Shown piece after piece: positions 4,034-29,256 of a DNA stretch of 32,000 nt. The stretch comes from an uncultured Chloroflexia bacterium (GTDB lineage Bacteria; Chloroflexota; Anaerolineae; Anaerolineales; Anaerolineaceae). The stretch lies in contig OY969938.1 in NCBI GenBank assembly GCA_963704755.1, positions 1,830,001-1,862,000 of the forward strand, read 5' to 3'. Positions within the stretch are counted from its first letter, which is position 1. Each line of letters opens with the position of its first letter. The translations under genes and the position numbers were made by a program. The notes under the pieces were generated by a model. The model did not search any database. It was given only the letters and a program-made list of their open reading frames with translations, and had not been told where the DNA came from.

Positions 4034-4759
4034 ATGTCTGGAAGACAAACAATGCAGAAGAACGTTTCCATTTTGCTGGTTGAAGGCAAAAGATCTGACC
4101 GGGCTTCCTTTTTAGCTGGCCTGACTAAAAAGAAATTCCAGGTCGAGAGCGCACCCAGCGGTGCAGCTGCCTTGGCACGAATTGAAGAAAACAATCCCGA
4201 TATTATTATCATCGACGCTGCCTCCATGCGGACCAGCGGAAAACGGATTTGTTCCTCGTTAAGAGAGAAGGCCCCAGGAGTCCCTATCGTGCTCATCCTG
4301 GACGAGGCTACCCCCAATAATAACGACCAGGACGTAAACGTCGTTCTCAACCTGCCGTTTACCTTGCAAAAGTTACTCAACCGAATCAAACCCTACCTGC
4401 CCCAGGAACCCAAAAACGTGGTTCGAGCCGGCCCGATCTACCTGGACGTGCAGAACCGCTCGGTCCGCTGTATGGATCACCAGGCCCTGCTGACCCCGCG
4501 CCTGGTCCTGATTTTGCGCCTGTTGATGGAACACGCCGGCCAGGTGATCGAGCGCGAAGCGCTCTTCAGCCAGGTGTGGGATACCACCTACACCGGCGAT
4601 ACGCGCACCCTCGACGTTCACATCAGTTGGCTGCGCCAGGCCATCGAAGACGATCCCCGCCATCCGCGCTATATCAAAACCGTTCGCGGCCTGGGTTACC
4701 GCCTGGACGTTGACGATTTGCAAAATCTCAACGGCCGCTTCACCAAAAAAAGATACTGA
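4034..4759 (+). CDS. OmpR/PhoB-family winged-helix response regulator with atypical receiver domain
   Basis: The C-terminal domain (LTPRLVLILRLLMEHAGQVIEREALFSQVWD......TRTLDVHISWLRQAIEDDP..PRYIKTVRGLGYRL) is a classic Trans_reg_C domain. The N-terminal domain has a CheY-like fold and retains the Asp in IIIIDAAS. The alternative start at 4052 (MQKNVSILLVEG) has a weak GGAAG upstream and may be the real one. Confidence 0.85.
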   Translation: MSGRQTMQKNVSILLVEGKRSDRASFLAGLTKKKFQVESAPSGAAALARIEENNPDIIIIDAASMRTSGKRICSSLREKAPGVPIVLILDEATPNNNDQDVNVVLNLPFTLQKLLNRIKPYLPQEPKNVVRAGPIYLDVQNRSVRCMDHQALLTPRLVLILRLLMEHAGQVIEREALFSQVWDTTYTGDTRTLDVHISWLRQAIEDDPRHPRYIKTVRGLGYRLDVDDLQNLNGRFTKKRY

Positions 4760-9928: not shown

Positions 9929-10026
9929 GATGGAGTCCTTTGTTGGATGAGTATATCTGACCTTCGGACCTTGTGCAATCTCTGGTTTCAACCTGATCGT
10001 GGAATTATTCAGCTTCGTGGTGCAGA

Positions 10027-10087
10027 ATTGCCGAATTGGATGAGATTGCGCTGGCGTAGACAGCACAAACTCATCCAATTCGGCAAT
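10027..10087. repeat. perfect 18-bp inverted repeat with 25-nt spacer in a divergent promoter region
   Basis: ATTGCCGAATTGGATGAG (10027-10044) and CTCATCCAATTCGGCAAT (10070-10087) are exact reverse complements. The spacer is ATTGCGCTGGCGTAGACAGCACAAA and contains GTAG. It lies 55 nt upstream of the GTG start at 10142. Confidence 0.85.
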
Positions 10088-10141
10088 TACTTTATCTGAA
10101 TTCCGCTTGTCTCACTTTTAACCCCGTGATAAACTTTTAAC

Positions 10142-11569
10142 GTGCAAAAGAAGGTTCTGGTCGTCAGCTTCAACCCTGCTTTTCGAGATCTGTTGCGCCG
10201 CGGCCTGGAAGAAAGCGGGCGTTACAGCCCGGTTTTAGCGCCTGAGACAGACGCGTGGGATTCACACCTCTACCGTGACGACTTTGATCTGATCCTGGCC
10301 GACCTGGCCACCGGTGAGGAAAACGCCCGAACTATTTTATCCAACCTGGACCGGCTGGCCCCAGACCTGGCGCCGGTCGTGTTCCCGCCCGAAAACGACC
10401 CGCAGCATCCCTGGCTGGAAGACCGAAAGCTGGCCGCCTGCCTGATAAAGCCACTCCATTTATCGGCCCTGCTGGAGGCGCTCGATTCCATCTGTGGACA
10501 GCCGGCCGGAGTGAACGATTGGTACCCCGAGGTCATCCTAGATCCACCCACCCTGGCCAACCTGTTGGCGGACACCCAGGCGACGGCAGGTGTCTTATTG
10601 GAATCCGGCCAGGCTGCTACCATCGCCGGCCAACTGGACGCCGCCGGTGGGGCCGAGGTCACCACGCTGCTGCCCGTCCGGGGAAATGACCTGCCCGGTG
10701 ACCTGGTGCGCTATGCCCACCTGGCAGCCACCGGCCAGGACCATTTGCTTTACGGTGTCTGTTTGAGTGGAGACCGCCTGCTGGTCCTGATTTTCCCGGC
10801 CGAAGTCTCCTACACCCGCGCCCGCGCCGACAGCCAATCTGTGATGGCCATCCTGCAGCCGCGCTCGTCCGTCCCGGCCCGCCAGCCCAACCTGGCCCCC
10901 CTGCCCGAGGTCCAGGATTTGCCCGAAGACGAACCCTCCGCCCCGGCCACGCTGGACCAGCTTTCTCAGCCGGAACCGGACGCAGCCGCATCATTTGCCG
11001 ATTTGCTGGCCGGTAAAGCGGATCCGGCGGGTGAATGGGCTCACGAGCCGAATTTTGAGCAGACGGCTGCTCTCACCGAAGAGTCCTTACCGGCTCCGGC
11101 CGGCCCGGACCTCACGCTGGAAGACACCCGGCCCAATCACCCCGGCAATCCGCCGCCCCCGCTCGAGGCCGGCTTCGTTCCCGCCGCCCAGAAATACACC
11201 TGCGTACTGGTTCCGACCCTGCCCGAGACCAGCCTGGCCGGTGAACCGGGCCAGGCGTTAGCCGCCTGGCTGCAGGAATTCTGCCAGACCTTTGGCTGGC
11301 AGCTCGAGCGCGTCCAGGCCGAGCCGCATTACCTGCTCTGGACGGTCACTTTTACCCCACCCGGTACGCCCGGTCACCTGGCGCGCACCCTGCGCCAGCA
11401 GAGTTCGCGCCTGTTAAACGAGAAGTTCCCCCAAATCTCCGGCGTATTGAACGGGAAAGACTTCTGGGCCCCCGGCTTTTTGCTGGTCAGCGGTGGACAG
11501 GCTCCCCAGCCGGCCCAGATCGAGGACTACATTCAACAGACTCGCACACGCCAGGGCTATCCATCCTGA
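10142..11569 (+). CDS. pseudo-receiver (CheY-like) domain protein with C-terminal degenerate IS200/Y1 (HUH) transposase-like domain
   Basis: GTG start with no obvious SD. A TTGTCT-17 nt-TAAACT promoter-like pair at 10107-10135 ends 6 nt before the start, so the mRNA may be leaderless. Residues 1-115 are receiver-like (KVLVVSFN, DLILADL, CLIKPL). Residues ~352-470 parallel IS200/IS608 TnpA: YTCVLVP, EPHYLLW at the HUH position, FWAPGFLLVSGG, EDYIQQT. A long Pro/Ala/Glu-rich linker sits between the two domains. Confidence 0.8.
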   Translation: MQKKVLVVSFNPAFRDLLRRGLEESGRYSPVLAPETDAWDSHLYRDDFDLILADLATGEENARTILSNLDRLAPDLAPVVFPPENDPQHPWLEDRKLAACLIKPLHLSALLEALDSICGQPAGVNDWYPEVILDPPTLANLLADTQATAGVLLESGQAATIAGQLDAAGGAEVTTLLPVRGNDLPGDLVRYAHLAATGQDHLLYGVCLSGDRLLVLIFPAEVSYTRARADSQSVMAILQPRSSVPARQPNLAPLPEVQDLPEDEPSAPATLDQLSQPEPDAAASFADLLAGKADPAGEWAHEPNFEQTAALTEESLPAPAGPDLTLEDTRPNHPGNPPPPLEAGFVPAAQKYTCVLVPTLPETSLAGEPGQALAAWLQEFCQTFGWQLERVQAEPHYLLWTVTFTPPGTPGHLARTLRQQSSRLLNEKFPQISGVLNGKDFWAPGFLLVSGGQAPQPAQIEDYIQQTRTRQGYPS

Positions 11570-11634: not shown

Positions 11635-14412
11635 ATGCCGCCAACTTTATACCTGATCGACGGCCATGCGCTGGCTTATCGCACTTACTTTGCCTTGAGC
11701 ATGACCAGTCAGAAATTTTCTACCGCTGAGGGCGAGCCAACCGCCGGGACATTCGGCTTTGCCAGCGTCCTGCTGCGCCTTCTGGAACAAGACCAACCCG
11801 AATACCTGGCCGTCGCCTTCGATACCGGGCGGACCTTCCGCAACGACATGTACCCGGAATACAAAGCCACCCGCGCCAAAATGCCGGATGACCTGCGCCC
11901 GCAGATCGAGCGCATCCGCCTGATGGTCGATGCGCTCAACATCCCGCGGATCGAACACGAAGGCGTGGAAGCCGACGACGTTCTTGGCAGCATTGCCCGC
12001 CAGGCGGTCGCCAAGGGTTTTGGGGTGAAGATCATCACCGGCGACCGCGACCTGCTGCAGTTGGTAGATAACCGTATCCTGGTCAACCTGCCCGAGGGCA
12101 AGCTCTCCGACGCAAAAGATTTTGGTCCCAATGAGGTCATGGCAAAGCTGGGTGTTCGGCCCGACCAGGTTGTGGATTACAAAGCCCTGGTGGGGGATAA
12201 ATCCGATAACATCCCCGGCGTGGCCGGCGTGGGGGAGAAGACCGCCATCAACCTGCTGGAAAAATACCAGACCCTGGATGAAATTTACGCTCACCTGGAC
12301 GAAGTGGCCCCGCGGGTGCGCAACCTGCTGGAAAAGTCGCGCGAGAACGCCTATCTCAGCCAGGACCTGGCCACCATTCGCACCGACGTACCGGTCGTGC
12401 TCGACCTGGAAAAAGCCCGTACCAGCGGGATCAATTTGCCGGCGGCCGAGCAATTATTTATCCAACTTGAATTTCGTTCACTCATCCCGCGTTTGAAGAA
12501 ACTCGAAGGCCAGGTTGTGCCGGTCAACGATGGGCAGCAGTTAGCCCTCTTTGGCCAGCCGGTGGTGCAGATCGGCGAACCCGCCCCGGTCGATATTACC
12601 GTCAAAGTGGTCGATTCCGAAGCGGCCCTGGCCGAATTGACGGCGGCCCTGGAAAAGGCCAAACTGATCTCCTTCGACACCGAAACCACCTCGACCGACC
12701 CAATGAGCGCCGGCCTGGTAGGCATCTCCCTGGCCGTCCAACCCGGGGAAGGCTATTACATCCCGGTGGGCCACACCACCGGAGAGCCGCAACTGCCCGT
12801 GGCGCAGGTAATCGAAGCCCTGCGACCGGCCATGAGCGACCCGCACAAGTCCAAGGTCGGGCACAACCTCAAATACGACTGGTTGATGCTGGCCCGCCAG
12901 GGCCTTGAATCCGCCCCCCTGGATTTTGATACCATGATAGCGGCTTTTTTGGTCCAGCCGGACAGCTACAACCTGGGGTTGAAAGATATGGCCCGGGCTT
13001 ACCTGGGTTTGGCCATGACCCACATCGAGGAATTGATCGGTAAGGGCAAGAACCAGACCACCATGAATGTCGTACCCATCCAGCAGGCCGCCAGCTATGC
13101 GGCCGCCGATGCGGAGGTTTGCCTGCGGCTGATGCCTGTGATGCAAAAACGCATGGAGGAGGTCCAGGCGGCCAGGCTCTTCCATGAGATCGAAATGCCC
13201 CTGGTTCCGGTGCTGGCCCAGATGGAACGTAACGGCGTGGCGCTGGATGTAGACCTGCTCAAGAAAATGTCGGTTGACCTGACCAAACGCCTGGGTGAGA
13301 TCGAGACCGAAATCTACGACGGGGTGGGCTATACCTTCAACCTCAATTCCACCCAGCAGCTTTCCAAGGCGCTCTTCGAAACCCTGCGCCTGGAGCCGCC
13401 CGATCGCCGCAAGAAGACCTCCTCCGGCCATTTCTCCACCTCGGCCGATGTGCTGGAAGAGATCCGCCAGCAGCACCCGGTAGTCGAATGGATCCTGGAA
13501 TATCGCGAGCTGTCCAAGCTCAAGTCCACCTACGTGGACGCGCTGCCCCTGCAAGTCAACCGGGTTACCGGGCGCGTGCACACCTCCTACAACCAGACCG
13601 GCTCGGTCACCGGGCGGCTGGCCTCCTCCGACCCCAACCTGCAAAATATTCCCACGCGCACCGACACCGGCCGGCTGGTGCGCAATGCCTTTGTCGCCGG
13701 TCCGGGGCTGAAGCTGTTGGCCGTGGATTATTCGCAGATCGAGCTGCGCATCGTGGCCCACATGGCCAAAGACGAGGCCATGTTGGACGCCTTCCGCGAA
13801 GGGCAGGACATCCACGCCACCACCGCAGCCGCGGTATACGGCGTGCCCCTGAACGAGGTCACCAAGGACCAGCGCCGCCACGCCAAAGCGATCAACTTCG
13901 GCTTGATCTACGGGATGAGCTCGTTCGGCTTGAGCCGCGCCACCGACCTGACCCTGGGCGAGGCGGAGAATTTCGTCAAGGCCTATTTCAAGCGCTTCCC
14001 GGCCGTCAAGAGTTTCCTGGATGGCATCCGCCTCCTGGCCAAAGAACAGGGCTACGTGGAAACCCTGCTCGGCCGCCGGCGTTATTTCCCCAACCTGAAG
14101 AACCCGATCAACAAGGCCATGGTTGCCCGCGAAGAGCGCGAGGCCATCAACGCGCCTGTACAGGGCACTGCCGCCGATATCCTCAAGATCGCCATGGTCC
14201 GTATGCCGGCCGCGCTGGACGCAGCCGGGCTGCACGCCCGCATGCTCTTGCAAGTCCACGATGAGCTGGTGCTGGAGGTACCTGAGGAAGAACGCGATTT
14301 GGCCACCCGGACGGTCAAGCAAATTATGGAAAATGCCTATCCCCTTTCTATCCCACTGCTCACCGAGGCGCGCTGGGGCCATAACTGGGGCTCTTTACAG
14401 GTGTTGGATTAA
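11635..14412 (+). CDS. polA: DNA polymerase I (5'-3' exonuclease, 3'-5' exonuclease and polymerase domains)
   Basis: 925 aa. The 5' nuclease domain has LIDGHALAYRTYFA and ITGDRDLLQL. The exonuclease domain has ISFDTETTS. The polymerase motifs are A (DYSQIELRIVAH), B (RRHAKAINFGLIYGMS) and C (LQVHDELVLEV). AAGGTGA SD upstream. Confidence 0.97.
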   Translation: MPPTLYLIDGHALAYRTYFALSMTSQKFSTAEGEPTAGTFGFASVLLRLLEQDQPEYLAVAFDTGRTFRNDMYPEYKATRAKMPDDLRPQIERIRLMVDALNIPRIEHEGVEADDVLGSIARQAVAKGFGVKIITGDRDLLQLVDNRILVNLPEGKLSDAKDFGPNEVMAKLGVRPDQVVDYKALVGDKSDNIPGVAGVGEKTAINLLEKYQTLDEIYAHLDEVAPRVRNLLEKSRENAYLSQDLATIRTDVPVVLDLEKARTSGINLPAAEQLFIQLEFRSLIPRLKKLEGQVVPVNDGQQLALFGQPVVQIGEPAPVDITVKVVDSEAALAELTAALEKAKLISFDTETTSTDPMSAGLVGISLAVQPGEGYYIPVGHTTGEPQLPVAQVIEALRPAMSDPHKSKVGHNLKYDWLMLARQGLESAPLDFDTMIAAFLVQPDSYNLGLKDMARAYLGLAMTHIEELIGKGKNQTTMNVVPIQQAASYAAADAEVCLRLMPVMQKRMEEVQAARLFHEIEMPLVPVLAQMERNGVALDVDLLKKMSVDLTKRLGEIETEIYDGVGYTFNLNSTQQLSKALFETLRLEPPDRRKKTSSGHFSTSADVLEEIRQQHPVVEWILEYRELSKLKSTYVDALPLQVNRVTGRVHTSYNQTGSVTGRLASSDPNLQNIPTRTDTGRLVRNAFVAGPGLKLLAVDYSQIELRIVAHMAKDEAMLDAFREGQDIHATTAAAVYGVPLNEVTKDQRRHAKAINFGLIYGMSSFGLSRATDLTLGEAENFVKAYFKRFPAVKSFLDGIRLLAKEQGYVETLLGRRRYFPNLKNPINKAMVAREEREAINAPVQGTAADILKIAMVRMPAALDAAGLHARMLLQVHDELVLEVPEEERDLATRTVKQIMENAYPLSIPLLTEARWGHNWGSLQVLD

Positions 14413-14527
14413 GTGCCTGGAAAAAAGCATCAACTTTGCGGATTTGTTATCCTGCCAGCTTTGCTTTCCGGGCAGGTTTAGGGTAAATTTGTAGAAGTGA
14501 TTCTTTTCTCAAGCTGGAGTGCCCAAC

Positions 14528-16855
14528 ATGCCCGCTGACCAGAGTAAATTCGAAAAAGCCTTGAACGACGGCCATTCAGCCGCCTGGGACCAGCATTGGG
14601 AAGAAGCTGCCAATTATTACCGCGCCGCCCTGGAAGAATTTCCCAACCACGCCGGCGCACTGGCCAGCCTGGGATTGGCGCTCTTCGAACTGCAAGACTT
14701 CGACCAAGCCCTGGAAGTGTACCAGCGCGCATCCATCCTCGCCCCCAAGGACCCGGTCGCCTTCGAGAAAATGGCCCGCATTTACGAGCGTATTGGCCAA
14801 CTGGGCGATGCGGTCAGAAGCGGCATGCAGGCCGCCGAACTGTACCTGGAAGCCCACGACATCGACAAGTCGATCGAAGACTGGGTCCGCGTAACCAGCC
14901 TTCAGCCCGAAAACATGACCGCCCACACCCGCCTGGCGGTGATCTATGAGAAGATGGGCCGCAAGCCCGAGGCGGTGGCGGCTTACCTGAACGTCGCCAG
15001 CCTTTTCCAGCACCGAAAGGATATCGCCAAGGCTACCCAGGTCGTTCAATACGCCCTCAAGCTGCTGCCTGGCAGCCCCGATGCCAGCGAGTATATGCAG
15101 CTCCTCAAGAGCGGCAACAACCTGCCGCGCCCGGTCCGCCCGCGTGGGGGCACCGGCCCGGTGCGCATGGCCGAGATACGCCAGCTCCAGTCCAGTGAAG
15201 ACACCCATGCGGCGGTCCAATCCGACCCGATCAGCGAAGCGCGCCAGAACGCCCTGGTGCAGTTGGCCGGGCTGCTGTTCGAGCAGTCCGAGGAGATCGA
15301 AGAGACCAACGACCAGGCCAACCGTCACAAGATCAATGCCCTGGCGCGCGGTACCGGCGGCCTGTCCCTGGACCATACCGAACAATCCCGTGTGCTGCTC
15401 CACCTGGGGCAGGCCATCGAATCCCAGACCCATAACGACGAAAACCAGGCCCTGGACGAGCTCAACCGGGTTTACGAAGTTGGCTTTTCACACCCGGCCC
15501 TGCATTTCAACCTGGGCTATTTGTATTCTTCCCGTGACTCGGCCAAGGCCATCCGTTCACTGAACAAATCGGTGAAAAACCCGGATTTCTCGCTGGCTTC
15601 GAACCTGCTCCTGGGAAAGATCTATTACGATGCCGGCAAATACAGCGAAGCCGCCATCAATTACCTGCAAGCCCTGCGCCTGGCGGATATTACCACGGTG
15701 CCGGAAGGGCAAAAAGAGCAGTTGCGCCAGCTCTACGAGCCGGTGATCGAGGCCCAGGCTAACCAGACCGACGATCCCCAGCTCAAGTCCATCTGTGAGA
15801 CCATCGCCGGCCAACTGATCCAGCCGGATTGGCGCCTTCTGCTCCTGCAGGCCCGCCAGCAGCTTCCGATTCTCGCGGAAGGGGCCCCGCCGATGCCGGT
15901 ATCCGAGATTCTGCTCGAAACTCGCAGCGCGCAGGTGATCGAATTGCTGGCCAATATCCGCACTTATGAATCCCAGGGCATGGACCGCACGGCCATGGAA
16001 GAGGCCTTTTACGCCCTGGATTACGCCCCAACGTACCTGCCGCTGCACATCGAAATCGGCGACCTGTTGGCCAAAGAGGGCAAAGTCGATGACGCCGTGC
16101 GCAAGTACATGCTCGTTACCCAACTATACAACTTGCGCGGCGATGCCACCCAGGCGATCAACCTGTTGACCCGTGTTACCCAGATCGCCCCAATGGACCA
16201 GTCGGTGCGCGACCGTTTGATCGAACTGCTCACCGAGCAGGGCCGCATCGATGACGCCATCCAGCAATACATGGAACTGGCCGACATGTTCTATCGCCTG
16301 GCCGAGATGGACCGCACCCGCCAGACTTATTTGACTGCCATGCGCCTGGCCAAGCAGTCCGCCCGCAACCGCCTGTGGGCCTATCAAATCCTCAGTCACC
16401 TGGCCGACATCGACGTGCAAAGGCTGGACTGGCGCCAGGCCCTGCGGTTTTACGAACAGATGCGCACCCTCCAGCCCGAGGACCAGGTCCCGCGCAACCG
16501 CATCGTGGACCTGAACTTCCGCCTGGGTCAAGACCCGGCGGCTTACTCCGAGCTGGACAATTACCTGGACCTGCTCGAAAACAGCCGCCAGCTCAACGAG
16601 GCGATCGCTTTCCTGGAATGTCTTTTGGAAGACTATCCTGACAAGTCCAACCTGCGCCGCCGCCTGGCGAACGTTTTCCTCAAGGCCAGCCGGACGGCCG
16701 AAGCGATCAGCCAACTGGATGCCCTGGCCGACGCCTACCACGAAGCCGGCGAGATTCGCAACGCCATTCAGGTGGTCGAAGAAATCATCCAGCTCAATCC
16801 CCCCGACCGCGACCAGTTCGAAGCCGTGTTAAAGGATTTGCGCAAGGAAGTGTGA
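14528..16855 (+). CDS. tetratricopeptide-repeat (TPR) protein
   Basis: About 775 aa of recurring 34-residue A/L/Y-patterned helical repeats, for example ALEVYQRASILAPKDPVAFEKMARIYERIGQLGDAV. The ORF track starts at the GTG at 14519. The ATG at 14528 has GGAG 8 nt upstream. Confidence 0.85.
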   Translation: MPADQSKFEKALNDGHSAAWDQHWEEAANYYRAALEEFPNHAGALASLGLALFELQDFDQALEVYQRASILAPKDPVAFEKMARIYERIGQLGDAVRSGMQAAELYLEAHDIDKSIEDWVRVTSLQPENMTAHTRLAVIYEKMGRKPEAVAAYLNVASLFQHRKDIAKATQVVQYALKLLPGSPDASEYMQLLKSGNNLPRPVRPRGGTGPVRMAEIRQLQSSEDTHAAVQSDPISEARQNALVQLAGLLFEQSEEIEETNDQANRHKINALARGTGGLSLDHTEQSRVLLHLGQAIESQTHNDENQALDELNRVYEVGFSHPALHFNLGYLYSSRDSAKAIRSLNKSVKNPDFSLASNLLLGKIYYDAGKYSEAAINYLQALRLADITTVPEGQKEQLRQLYEPVIEAQANQTDDPQLKSICETIAGQLIQPDWRLLLLQARQQLPILAEGAPPMPVSEILLETRSAQVIELLANIRTYESQGMDRTAMEEAFYALDYAPTYLPLHIEIGDLLAKEGKVDDAVRKYMLVTQLYNLRGDATQAINLLTRVTQIAPMDQSVRDRLIELLTEQGRIDDAIQQYMELADMFYRLAEMDRTRQTYLTAMRLAKQSARNRLWAYQILSHLADIDVQRLDWRQALRFYEQMRTLQPEDQVPRNRIVDLNFRLGQDPAAYSELDNYLDLLENSRQLNEAIAFLECLLEDYPDKSNLRRRLANVFLKASRTAEAISQLDALADAYHEAGEIRNAIQVVEEIIQLNPPDRDQFEAVLKDLRKEV

Positions 16856-16875: not shown

Positions 16876-16947
16876 GTGTTACGGTGTTACGGTGTTTCAG
16901 TGTTTCAGTGTTTCAGTGTTTCGGTGTCACGGTGTTACCGTGACATT
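16876..16947 (+). repeat. 8-nt microsatellite, about 9 copies of GTGTTNCR
   Basis: GTGTTACG GTGTTACG GTGTTTCA GTGTTTCA GTGTTTCA GTGTTTCG GTGTCACG GTGTTACC GTGACATT. It begins 21 nt after the TPR stop. Confidence 0.9.
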
Positions 16948-16954
16948 GTTGTTT

Positions 16955-16996
16955 GGCCCCTCTCCCGCTTCTGGGAGAGGGGTTGGGGAGAGGGCC
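16955..16996 (+). repeat. family-1 palindromic repeat copy
   Basis: GGCCCCTCTCCCGCTTCTGGGAGAGGGGTTGGGGAGAGGGCC. It is near-identical to 27798-27838 and related to the three copies at 6551-6745. Confidence 0.85.
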
Positions 16997-17985
16997 AGCC
17001 CCGGTCATCCCAGGCTCACGTTATTTTCCATCGAAAAAAACATTGTTCGGGCCGGTCTCTCCCTCCGCCTTTCAGGCTTCGGCCGAGCCCGCTCTTCAAC
17101 GCGTGTTTGGAAGCCAGCCTGTAGGTTGGGTTGCGGGCTCGATCGCAACATTGGTTATTGGGAAAAACATATCCCAACCCGGGTTTTGCCCGTAACCCAA
17201 CTGGGTATCGCAAACGTTGGGTTTCGGGCAGAGCCCGGCAAAACAAAATGCCCTTCCGTATGCCAATGCCATAAAAGAGCCCGCAACCCAACCTACACGA
17301 ACGCCATGGATAAATAGTGAGGGCCAGCGCCGGTCATCCCAGGTTCACGTTATTTTCCATCGAAAAAAAACATTGTTCGGGCCGGTCTCTCCCTCCGCCT
17401 TTCAGGCTTCGGCCGAGCCCGCTCTTCAACGCGTGTTTGGAAGCCAACCCACGTAGGTTGGGTTGCGGGCTCGATCGCAACATTGGTTATTGGGAAAAAC
17501 ATATCCCAACCTGGGTTTTACCCGTAACCCAACTGGGTATCGCAAACGTTGGGTTACGGGCAGAGCCCGGCAAAACAAAATGCCCTTCCGTATGCCAACG
17601 CCATAAAAAGCCCGCAACCCAACCTACACGAACGCCATGGATAAATAGTGAGGACCAGCCCCGGTCATCCCAGGCTCACGTTATTTTCCATCGAAAAAGC
17701 CATTGTTCGGGCCGGTCTCTCCCTCCGCCTTTCAGGCTTCGGCCGAGCCCGCTGTTCAACGCGTGTTTGGAAGCCAACCCACGTAGGTTGGGTTGCGGGC
17801 TCGATCGCAACATTGGTTATTGGGAAAAACATATCCCAACCTGGGTTTTGACCGTAACCCAACTGGGTATCGCAAACGTTAGGTTACGGGCAGAGCCTGG
17901 AATGTTATGCGGCCCGGCAATTTTCCGGCGTTCATAATGAGCCCGCAACCCAACCTACACGAACTACACGAGCGCATGGATGAAT
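16990..17985 (+). repeat. tandem array A: three head-to-tail copies of a ~330-bp composite unit, each containing a 176-bp element with perfect 18-nt terminal inverted repeats
   Basis: Unit starts (GAGGRCCAGCSCCGGTCATCCCAGG) are at 16990, 17319 and 17650. GTAGGTTGGGTTGCGGGC...GCCCGCAACCCAACCTAC occurs at 17121-17296, 17453-17627 and 17783-17958. By eye, copies differ by only scattered substitutions and 1-2 nt indels. Confidence 0.9.
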
Positions 17986-20505: not shown

Positions 20506-20562
20506 CGAGACTATTATAACTGGGGTGGGAAGAGAGTAGAGATTAGAAATGAGAGATTAGTC

Positions 20563-20656
20563 AATGAGGCGAGAAGGCAAAAAGGTGATGAGGTAATGGG
20601 GCAACAAGGTAACAAGGCAATGGGGCAACGAGGCGATGAGGCGATGAGGCGACAAG
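20563..20656. repeat. degenerate 9-nt purine-rich microsatellite (pyrimidine-rich on the murJ sense strand)
   Basis: AATGAGGCG AGAAGGCAA AAAGGTGAT GAGGTAATG GGGCAACAA GGTAACAAG GCAATGGGG CAACGAGGC GATGAGGCG ATGAGGCGA. It lies 58-150 nt upstream of the murJ start. Confidence 0.7.
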
Positions 20657-20668
20657 GATAGCAGCATT

Positions 20669-28054: not shown

Positions 28055-28081
28055 CAACCATCCACCGGCTCGGAATTTTTT

Positions 28082-29256
28082 AGTCGAGGTGATATTGTTG
28101 GGTTCGGGCAAAACCTTTGCAGATAAACACCAGGTGTCTGGCCAGTGTTGTCAATCCGCCCGAACCCAACCTACGCGAGCGCTGTAAATCAACCGCACAA
28201 AAGTTTACATTGAGCCCCACGAAGGTGGGGCTTCGTGAATTTGTTGCCGCGACCTCGGTCGCCAACGCATGTCGAAGAACCCGTCTTCGAAAGTCAAGCT
28301 ACCATACCGCTCCACCGAATTTTCAAGTCGGGGTGATATTGTTGGGTTCGGGCAAAACCTTTGCAGATAAACGTCTGGAATCTGGCCAGTGTTGTCAATC
28401 CGCCCGAACCCAACCTACGCGAACGCCGTTATCATCGGGTAAAAAATCTGAATTGAGCCCCACGAAGGTGGGGCTTCGCGAATTTGTTGCCGCGACCTCG
28501 GTCGCCAACGCATATCGAAGAACCCGTCTTCGAAAGTCAAGCTACCATACCGCTCCTCCGGATTTTCAAGTCGAGGTAATATTGTTGGGTTCGGGCAAAA
28601 CCTTTGCAGATAAGCGCCAGGTGTCTGGCCAATGTTGTCAATCCGCCCGAACCCAACCTACGCGAGCGCCGTTATCATCGGGTAAAAAATCTGAATTGAG
28701 CCCCACGCAGGTGGGGCTTCGTGCATTTGTTGCCGCGACCTCGGTCGCCAACGCATATCGAAGAACCCGTCTTCGAAAGTCAAGCTACCATACCGCTCCT
28801 CCGGATTTTCAAGTCGAGGTAATATTGTTGGGTTCGGGCAAAACCTTTGCAGATAAGCGCCAGGTGTCTGGCCAATGTTGTCAATCCGCCCGAACCCAAC
28901 CTACGCGAGCGCCGTTATCAGCGGGTAAAAAATCTGAATTGAGCCCCACGCAGGTGGGGCTTCGCGAATTTGTTGCCGCGACCTCGGTCGCCAACGCATA
29001 TCGAAGAACCCGTCTTCGAAAGTCAAGCTACCATACCTCTCCTCCGGATTTTCAAGTCGAGGTAATATTGTTGGGTTCGGGCAAAACCTTTGCAGATAAG
29101 CGCCTGGAATCTGGCCAATGTTGTCGACGAGCCCGAACCCAACCTACGCGAGCGCTGTAAATCAACCGCACAAAAGTTTACATTGAGCCCCACGAAAGTG
29201 GGGCTTCGTGCATTTGTTGCTGCGACCTTGGTCGCCAACGCATATCGAAGAACCCG
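28082..29256 (+). repeat. tandem array B: about 4.8 copies of a 243/244-bp four-hairpin unit
   Basis: Unit starts (AGTCGRGGTRATATTGTTGGGTTCGGGC) are at 28082, 28326, 28569, 28812 and 29055. The last copy breaks off after ...CGAAGAACCCG near 29256. Confidence 0.92.

Follow-up and report, generated by a model that had tools for sequence, protein, structure and literature searches.

What is a transposase-like protein doing directly upstream of the gene for DNA polymerase I (polA)? This question was raised by a gene on the plus strand of a 32,000-nucleotide stretch of DNA from an uncultured Chloroflexia bacterium (GTDB family Anaerolineaceae; GenBank assembly GCA_963704755.1, contig OY969938.1, positions 1,830,001 to 1,862,000). 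The whole stretch that was analyzed is referred to here as the window. An earlier note, drawn from the letters of the window, had described the product as a receiver-like domain fused to a degenerate Y1 (IS200) transposase domain, and had proposed that it is a signal-modulated protein that binds or processes DNA hairpins.

We found that the open reading frame (ORF) encodes a protein in which a pseudo-receiver, a predicted Roadblock/LC7 domain, and a disordered linker precede a Y1 domain with the fold of the IS200/IS605 transposase TnpA. This Y1 domain has lost its catalytic residues and yet is the slowest-evolving part of the protein. Relatives recur across the Anaerolineae, and polA nearly always follows. 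We have high confidence in this descriptive part of our reading, which covers how the protein is built and which catalytic residues it has lost, where the family occurs, and the synteny and promoter of its genes. Counts of loci, synteny, and upstream elements refer to the best 80 of 415 genome copies (L001-L080), and counts of residues in alignment columns to 111 family representatives and 81 genome copies. The features of the gene, in window coordinates, are as follows.

10142..11569, plus strand: whole ORF, 475 aa, GTG start; pseudo-receiver, Roadblock/LC7, disordered linker, and apparently dead Y1 (IS200 TnpA-fold) domain
10142..10495, plus strand: receiver-like domain, residues 1-118; D54 and K103-P104 kept, S9-F10 at the acidic pair, P82 at the Thr/Ser position
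10520..10861, plus strand: predicted Roadblock/LC7 (MglB/LAMTOR-like) domain, residues 127-240
10868..11149, plus strand: disordered Pro/Ala/Glu-rich linker, residues 243-336
10994..11050, plus strand: linker short motif 1, residues 285-303 (FADLLAGKADPAGEWAHEP), shortened in the window copy
11117..11134, plus strand: linker short motif 2, residues 326-331 (LEDTRP); family consensus [DE]-T-[RQ]-P
11189..11557, plus strand: Y1 (IS200/IS605 TnpA-fold) domain, residues 350-472, with an invariant, family-specific tail T-R-x-R-Q-G
11324..11341, plus strand: HUH remnant P395-H-Y-L-L-W400, aligned to the canonical P-D-H-U-H-L
11528..11530, plus strand: Y463 at the catalytic-Tyr position, aligned to the Tyr of 2ec2 and ISDra2

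Structural Features of the Y1 Domain

The C-terminal segment of about 120 residues has a true IS200/IS605 TnpA (Y1) fold, as the earlier note had supposed. The Pfam Y1_Tnp profile matched residues 351-466 over profile positions 6-120 of 121 (E=2.5e-11; 44.2 bits against a gathering cut-off of 23) and was above threshold in all 80 family members, and the NCBIfam IS200 equivalog model reached 45.8 bits in the window protein, under its cut-off of 55. The window sequence matched the solved IS200 transposases 2ec2 and 2f4f from Sulfolobus (E about 3e-5), and the family profile matched 2ec2 and ISDra2 TnpA with E-values ranging from 1.6e-15 (2ec2) to 1.4e-13. Structural prediction by AlphaFold from an alignment of 111 sequences gave three confident domains (predicted local distance difference test [pLDDT] mostly above 90), among them the Y1 domain with pLDDT above 90. 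The top 29 Foldseek matches in the PDB were the TnpA proteins of IS200, ISDra2, and IS608 (E from 3.9e-9; target template modeling score [TM] 0.62-0.83), with sequence identity to these real TnpA structures of only about 20-22%. No RAYT structure occurred among the listed sequence matches or the top 50 fold matches.

The residues that define TnpA catalysis were replaced. The profile alignment ran without gaps around the HUH motif and placed the conserved Pro on Pro, the single-sequence and family-profile alignments agreeing, which put Y397 and L399 of the window protein on the two His positions. H396, which had been taken for the retained first His of HUH, instead fell on the Asp preceding the motif, in a column that held Glu in 49 and Asp in 33 of the 111 representatives; a His there is peculiar to the window lineage. 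The family consensus across the motif was P-[E/D]-Y-L-Q-W, and H-x-H occurred in none of the 192 sequences (111 representatives plus 81 genome copies). Retention of the catalytic Tyr was correct for the window copy, which has Y463, and incorrect for the family, in which the column held Phe in 82 (74%) and Tyr in 29 of the representatives; among the 81 genome copies, 54 had Tyr and 27 Phe. The Gln metal ligand expected four residues past the Tyr was T467 in the window copy and Thr in 96 of the 111 representatives. Since both HUH histidines, the Gln ligand, and mostly the Tyr have been replaced, the domain is, as judged from its residues, a catalytically dead pseudo-enzyme, and the hairpin-processing role proposed earlier is not supported.

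The Y1 domain was nevertheless the best-conserved region of the protein. Compared in pairs, the 80 genome copies had a mean identity of 69.5% in Y1, 62.7% in Roadblock, 37.8% in the receiver, and 31.6% in the linker (window copy against the others: 40.5%, 26.1%, 26.0%, and 20.1%, respectively). P358, W442, R468, and Q471 were invariant in the 111 representatives, and R415, R418, R468, and R470 were among the conserved arginines of the domain. The loss of catalysis from the slowest-evolving part of the protein implies that some non-enzymatic property of the TnpA fold is under selection. We read the domain as an exapted, dead transposase domain on which purifying selection acts more strongly than on the other regions.

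Distribution and Inheritance of the Family

With clustering at 50% identity, an exhaustive profile search yielded at least 771 clusters with E<=1e-30, and most of the top 150 were full length (461-811 aa). In a genome scan that represented each species by a single genome, 415 species genomes proved to contain a copy. Word-indexed searches with a single sequence or with five sequences gave 5-7 relatives; it was the profile search and the genome scan that revealed the family. The best 80 of the 415 copies were essentially all from Anaerolineae, including Bellilinea, Longilinea, Anaerolinea, Brevefilum, and many metagenome bins, the exceptions being two bins labelled as other phyla. No family member was found on a plasmid or phage, and the matches on plasmids were weak Y1-domain matches to ordinary tnpA genes. 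Across genome pairs, the identity of the family protein climbed steadily with that of PolA, which indicated vertical descent. The protein appears to be single-copy, chromosomal, and vertically inherited throughout Anaerolineae. The suggestion that the gene is no transposon was borne out by the same data, together with the lack of a downstream hairpin or insertion sequence (IS) end and a base composition like that of its flanks.

Many family matches in the databases were only 120-230 aa long, and fragments of the family (P0157-P0276) carried labels such as "REP element-mobilizing transposase RayT", "IS200/IS605 family transposase, partial", and "CheY-like chemotaxis protein". Such labels inflate the counts of mobile elements in Anaerolineae genomes and metagenome bins. 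Stand-alone, Y1-only versions of the protein were considered and rejected: the short entries were contig-end fragments or frameshifted assemblies in the same gene context. Two entries from long contigs were inspected (P0179 and P0211; loci L081 and L082), and there the assemblies were rich in frameshifts and polA itself was split into three pieces.

Genomic Context and Promoter

The genomic context of the gene comprises the following features.

10107..10135, plus strand: promoter, with -35 box TTGTCT at 10107-10112, a 17-nt spacer, and extended -10 box TGATAAACT at 10127-10135
11635..14412, plus strand: polA, DNA polymerase I, 925 aa, probably co-transcribed
14519..16855, plus strand: TPR-repeat protein (Pfam TPR families), 778 aa, third gene of a conserved trio

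In the window, 65 nt separate the end of the gene from the start of polA on the same strand, as the earlier note had recorded. This adjacency was conserved: polA lay downstream on the same strand in 75 of the 80 loci; the median gap was 89 nt, and 51 spacers were shorter than 150 nt. In most of the loci the TPR gene came after polA. The upstream neighbor, a divergent gene of the metallo-beta-lactamase fold, was kept in at most 33 of the 80 loci (in the window, a gene of the phosphodiesterase family takes this position), and it is because the remaining synteny has eroded that the link to polA stands out. In the window, the 65-nt spacer was free of inverted repeats and of sites resembling a terminator or a promoter, and none of the 75 loci had an extended -10 element at up to 60 nt from the polA start. 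With no promoter element before polA and no terminator in the spacer, the gene is likely to be co-transcribed with polA and the TPR-protein gene.

Upstream of the gene, a pattern of TTGnnn, a 17-nt spacer ending in TGn, TAnAnT, and a start codon 4-12 nt further on was found in 74 of the 80 related loci; in the window, the -10 hexamer lies 6 nt before the GTG start at 10142. A k-mer screen of the upstream regions agreed, the best 9-mer (element AGTGTATCA/GTGATACAC) occurring in 48 of the 80 loci and in at most 4 in shuffled sequences. A simple promoter scan of the window had not flagged this site. The pattern suggested that the gene is transcribed from its own conserved promoter of the sigma-70 type. 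A promoter placed 4-12 nt before the start codon implies that the mRNA of the family genes would be leaderless, or nearly so, across Anaerolineae, and its position also backs the GTG start. A scan of the whole window at Rfam gathering thresholds found no RNA family.

Receiver, Roadblock, and Linker Regions

The receiver assigned earlier to the N-terminus was recovered at the level of the family rather than in the window copy alone. The Response_reg profile was below threshold for the window protein (E=0.093; 13.3 bits against a cut-off of 30.2) and matched 57 of the 80 family members at E<=0.01, the best with E=1.7e-11. Foldseek returned PhoB-type receivers, HemR, and others at a target TM of about 0.8. 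The phospho-acceptor Asp, D54, was kept in all 81 genome copies and in 109 of the 111 representatives, and position 103 was Lys or Arg, followed by P104, across the family. As had been noticed in the window copy, the acidic pair and the Thr/Ser are missing: positions 9-10, the Mg2+-binding pair, read T/S-P in the family and S-F in the window, and position 82 was Pro in 87 of the 111 representatives. The loss of these residues points to a pseudo-receiver that has given up the Mg2+ binding needed for phosphorylation, and the domain is unlikely to be phosphorylated. Modulation by a signal, part of the earlier proposal, is accordingly doubtful, although D54 is invariant.

Elsewhere in the window, an OmpR-type response regulator (4034-4759) matched the receiver profile only over positions 1-81 of 111, together with a GlnR_1st match, and may have an atypical receiver; the gene that follows it encodes a DUF389/SH3 protein.

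The middle segment of about 100 residues, which the earlier note could not assign, is predicted to be a Roadblock/LC7 domain with an alpha-beta-beta-alpha-beta-beta-beta-alpha fold. A separate model of this domain was confident (pLDDT 90.3; predicted TM [pTM] 0.85), and all of its top 50 Foldseek matches in the PDB were Roadblock proteins, namely p14/MP1, MglB, Ragulator, the C-terminal domains of Rag/Gtr, and 3kye, with the Roadblock/LC7 domain of S. avermitilis (E from 3.6e-5; query TM 0.46-0.68, mostly about 0.6-0.68). The family profile of the segment, when compared with the PDB, gave MglB in all eight best matches (E=0.005-0.009). Pfam Robl_LC7 had no match at E<=0.01 in the 80 members or in the window copy. 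Roadblock domains usually regulate small GTPases. The tandem of receiver (REC) and Roadblock (10142-10861, residues 1-240) aligned over approximately 300 columns with Rag/Gtr GTPases in Foldseek (E about 1e-5), a parallel that is architectural only and that may hint at Roadblock-mediated dimerization.

The Pro/Ala/Glu-rich linker proposed earlier is retained as residues 243-336, a stretch predicted to be disordered, with pLDDT below 50 at 243-285, 290-302, and 304-336. Its length varied across the family, in which proteins ranged from 461 to 811 aa. Embedded in it are the two short motifs listed above, the first of which has the family consensus L-x-x-L-L-x-D-V-P-x-P-D-P ... W..P.

Upstream Hairpin and Palindromic Repeats

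The inverted repeat reported upstream of the gene exists and is larger than the 18 bp given for it.

10026..10088, no strand: long palindrome or hairpin just 5' of the -35 box, specific to the source genome and probably outside the function of the family

Its arms of 28 nt (10026-10053 and 10061-10088) are 93% complementary, enclose a 7-nt loop, and contain a perfect 19-nt core; the predicted DNA fold has -27.8 kcal/mol (z=-8.3). The gene studied here and the divergently oriented phosphodiesterase-family gene share an intergenic region, and it is there, 18 nt before the -35 box, that the hairpin is located; its sequence is unique in the window. An upstream inverted repeat of any kind with at least 10 paired bases was present in about 7-10 of the 80 relatives, and only the -35 and extended -10 boxes, with no operator or hairpin, were conserved upstream of the 80 loci. 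The proposed link between the protein and this hairpin was therefore not supported; the hairpin could be an operator or a genome-specific element.

The palindromes to which the protein had also been linked, described as GTAG-flanked, belong to two tandem arrays at 16990-17897 (330 bp x 2.7) and 28075-29256 (243 bp x 4.9), whose units match at 92-96%. Both arrays carry palindromes of the form GTTGGGTT(N)CGGGC...GCCCGAACCCAAC, in the second array with perfect 13-nt arms 48 nt apart. The GTTGGGTT repeat had 14 near-matches in the window, none of them flanking the gene, and no match in about 1 Mb of the 80 related loci. With a family that is class-wide, repeats that are genome-specific, and catalytic residues that are absent, a link to the processing of repetitive extragenic palindromic (REP) elements was not supported. 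No mechanical ORF spanned the whole of either array, and partial ORFs overlapped both (e.g., 28117-29160, covering most of the second).

Shorter tandem repeats were also present in the window, at 16876-16942 (GTGTTACG x 8.4) and at 20562-20657 (a 24-nt unit x 3.4, GGCAACAAGGTGATGAGGCAATGG).

Functional Prediction and Alternative Explanations

What remains of the earlier proposal is a non-catalytic binding of structured or single-stranded DNA tied to replication or repair, which we consider plausible. DNA binding by the Y1 domain is suggested by ancestral TnpA biology, and the conserved arginines are consistent with it. IS608 TnpA has the beta clamp as an interaction partner, works on single-stranded DNA of the lagging-strand template, and also binds fork-like DNA (PMC5027513), and a work cited in PMC6006769 has the REP palindromes of E. 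coli bound by Pol I. On this basis, we propose that the dead Y1 domain would keep the dimerization of its TnpA ancestor and would bind, but not cut, lagging-strand DNA that is gapped as well as DNA that is single-stranded or folded into a hairpin. Together with the motifs of the linker, the REC-Roadblock half would form a platform for dimerization and for the recruitment of partners, with the TPR protein and/or Pol I as candidates, and the protein would assist or regulate Pol I-dependent gap filling or the processing of Okazaki fragments. The near-invariant operon link to polA makes lagging-strand or gapped DNA a concrete setting in which to seek the non-enzymatic property that is selected.

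Taken as a whole, with description and mechanism blended, this explanation is in our judgment somewhat probable. The Pol I-linked DNA-binding mechanism by itself is put forward tentatively, as a possibility. It is quite doubtful that a catalysis-stripped transposase fold has become a class-wide housekeeping accessory factor of Pol I, coupled to Pol I and a TPR partner through the REC-Roadblock part and the linker motifs. If true, this would make it the first "pseudo-transposase" of bacteria to serve a core function in replication or repair.

Several points weigh against this proposal. Nucleic-acid binding by the protein and its contact with Pol I are properties that we only infer, gene adjacency can persist for reasons besides shared function, and a small GTPase, the usual target of Roadblock domains, is not encoded in the window. 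Adjacency to polA has truly been lost in three genomes (L021, L053, and L074), two more loci being too short to tell; in L053, the gene is followed by genes for an NPCBM-domain protein and RelA/SpoT, and in L021 a stretch of about 2 kb that lacks any long ORF comes next, beyond which lies a RadA-like gene on the opposite strand. The window copy, moreover, is unusually diverged and evolves far faster than the genes next to it. Its overall identity to the Bellilinea copies (L001-L003) is 30-32%, and it is in Bellilinea that the PolA closest to that of the window is found (74-75%), with TPR proteins 49-57% identical; genome pairs at that PolA identity (74%) have a median family-protein identity of 55%. 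Three conserved arginines are replaced in the window copy (R359T, R387Q, and R394E), as is a further conserved residue (H363T). Its replaced arginines and its unusual divergence suggest that the function of this copy may have shifted. All strictly invariant residues of the family are still present in it.

The strongest of the alternatives is one that we consider unlikely, namely a polarity or scaffold protein unrelated to DNA. The REC-Roadblock-linker part would then be an NTPase landmark or regulator in the manner of RomR, MglB, or MglC, the Y1 domain would serve dimerization or protein binding, and the adjacency to polA would be meaningless. Of the bacterial proteins, MglB is the closest match to the Roadblock fold, the REC-Roadblock tandem aligns with the G-domain plus roadblock architecture of Rag/Gtr, and RomR likewise consists of a receiver and a Pro-rich linker and partners with Roadblock proteins (PMC12719032). 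The short motifs in the linker and the presence in the operon of a TPR protein, a typical peptide binder, fit such a role as well. It is the Y1 domain, however, and not REC-Roadblock that is most conserved, and its arginines R415, R418, R468, and R470 would suit a nucleic-acid binder. No GTPase gene, MglA-like or other, was found among the annotated neighbors in the window, and the polA adjacency has outlasted the remaining synteny.

Distinctly unlikely is an atypical transcription factor of the response-regulator type, in which a Y1-derived DNA-binding output would regulate the operon that encodes it, with polA and the TPR gene, or genes elsewhere. An N-terminal receiver with a C-terminal output is the standard layout of response regulators, the gene is first in its operon, and the -35 box in the window is closely preceded by a strong palindrome. 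For so conserved a domain, however, a conserved operator would be expected, whereas the conserved upstream DNA consists of the two promoter boxes and the long inverted repeat is confined to a small minority of loci. Phosphorylation would also require the acidic pair and the Thr/Ser that are missing from the receiver, and no histidine kinase gene adjoins the gene in the window.

A protein that keeps the TnpA fold and a probable dimer interface without catalysis might also act as an inhibitor of transposition, a dominant-negative decoy that binds IS200/IS605 ends or heterodimerizes with active TnpA, whose active sites are assembled in trans across the dimer (PMC3597680). We regard this as highly unlikely: the window contains no IS200/IS605 element, the low identity to real TnpA (about 20-22%) makes heterodimerization improbable, and class-wide conservation in a single copy within a polA operon argues for a housekeeping role.

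Even less can be said for an active or conditionally active RAYT-like HUH/Y1 nuclease that acts on the GTAG/GTTGGGTT palindromes or on the upstream hairpin. The Tyr at the catalytic position of the window copy, the His beside the former HUH, and the wealth of palindromic repeats in the window are what speak for it, and residue conservation has largely refuted it: other residues stand in place of both HUH histidines and of the Gln ligand, no relative has H-x-H, and most have Phe for Tyr. The repeat, moreover, is absent from the related loci, the hairpin is unique and not conserved, and the closest structures are IS200/IS605 TnpA rather than RAYTs. A decaying IS remnant or an annotation artefact, as the database names of the fragments might suggest, is refuted by the intact ORF, the confident model, hundreds of full-length relatives among the 771 clusters, and the origin of the short entries, which stem from truncation at contig ends or from long-read assemblies with frameshifts, where polA is likewise broken up.

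Comparison with Known Systems

A literature search found no description of the REC-Roadblock-dead-Y1 architecture or of its linkage to polA, and none of the database names encountered describes it; the nearest known systems each share a part of it. Rag/Gtr GTPases resemble the family in having an alpha/beta nucleotide-binding-like domain followed by a Roadblock domain, aligned over about 300 columns, but the overall target TM is low (0.26-0.31) and the N-terminal domain of the family is a receiver, not a GTPase.

The likeness to RomR, MglB, and MglC of Myxococcus and to the REC-NitrOD3 regulators of Thaumarchaeota lies in the combination of a receiver, a Roadblock/LC7-type domain, and a proline-rich disordered linker. 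RomR, MglB, and MglC form a functional REC-Roadblock partnership (PMC12719032), and fusions of REC with Roadblock-related domains occur in Thaumarchaeota (PMC5847659). In contrast to the family, these proteins regulate a small GTPase or have outputs that are unknown, and none has a transposase-derived domain or a link to polA.

To our knowledge, the domesticated Y1 transposases (RAYTs) all keep their catalytic center, and their role is still debated. RAYT (TnpA-REP) proteins share with the family the conversion of a Y1 domain into a single-copy, vertically inherited host gene. They differ in keeping the HuH/Y core and in being flanked by REPs, whereas the family has neither the core nor conserved flanking palindromes and carries REC and Roadblock domains in addition. 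Studies of RAYTs have stressed the intact catalytic center (PMC5581495, PMC8266576), and the classification of TnpAY1 into 12 subclasses, with median lengths of 148-325 aa, took the HuH/Y core as defining and discarded long fusions (PMC6006769).

The closest relatives by fold are the IS200/IS605 TnpA proteins, with which the fold and core motifs are shared over the full domain of about 120 aa. The family Y-x-C-L-L-V-P-R corresponds to YHxVWxPKYRR of TnpA and (D)FWAPGYL to LWxxSYF, the PP..SP..R..S helix is present, and so is the C-terminal helix with the Tyr position. Unlike TnpA, the family replaces HUH, the Gln ligand, and mostly the Tyr, and is fused to about 340 N-terminal residues; it lacks subterminal hairpins, tnpB, and multiple copies, was found on no plasmid or phage, and is syntenic across the class. 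Because the catalytic features that define the TnpA and RAYT enzyme families were looked for and found to be absent, the protein falls outside both, and we prefer to regard it as a new variant among the domesticated Y1 transposases.

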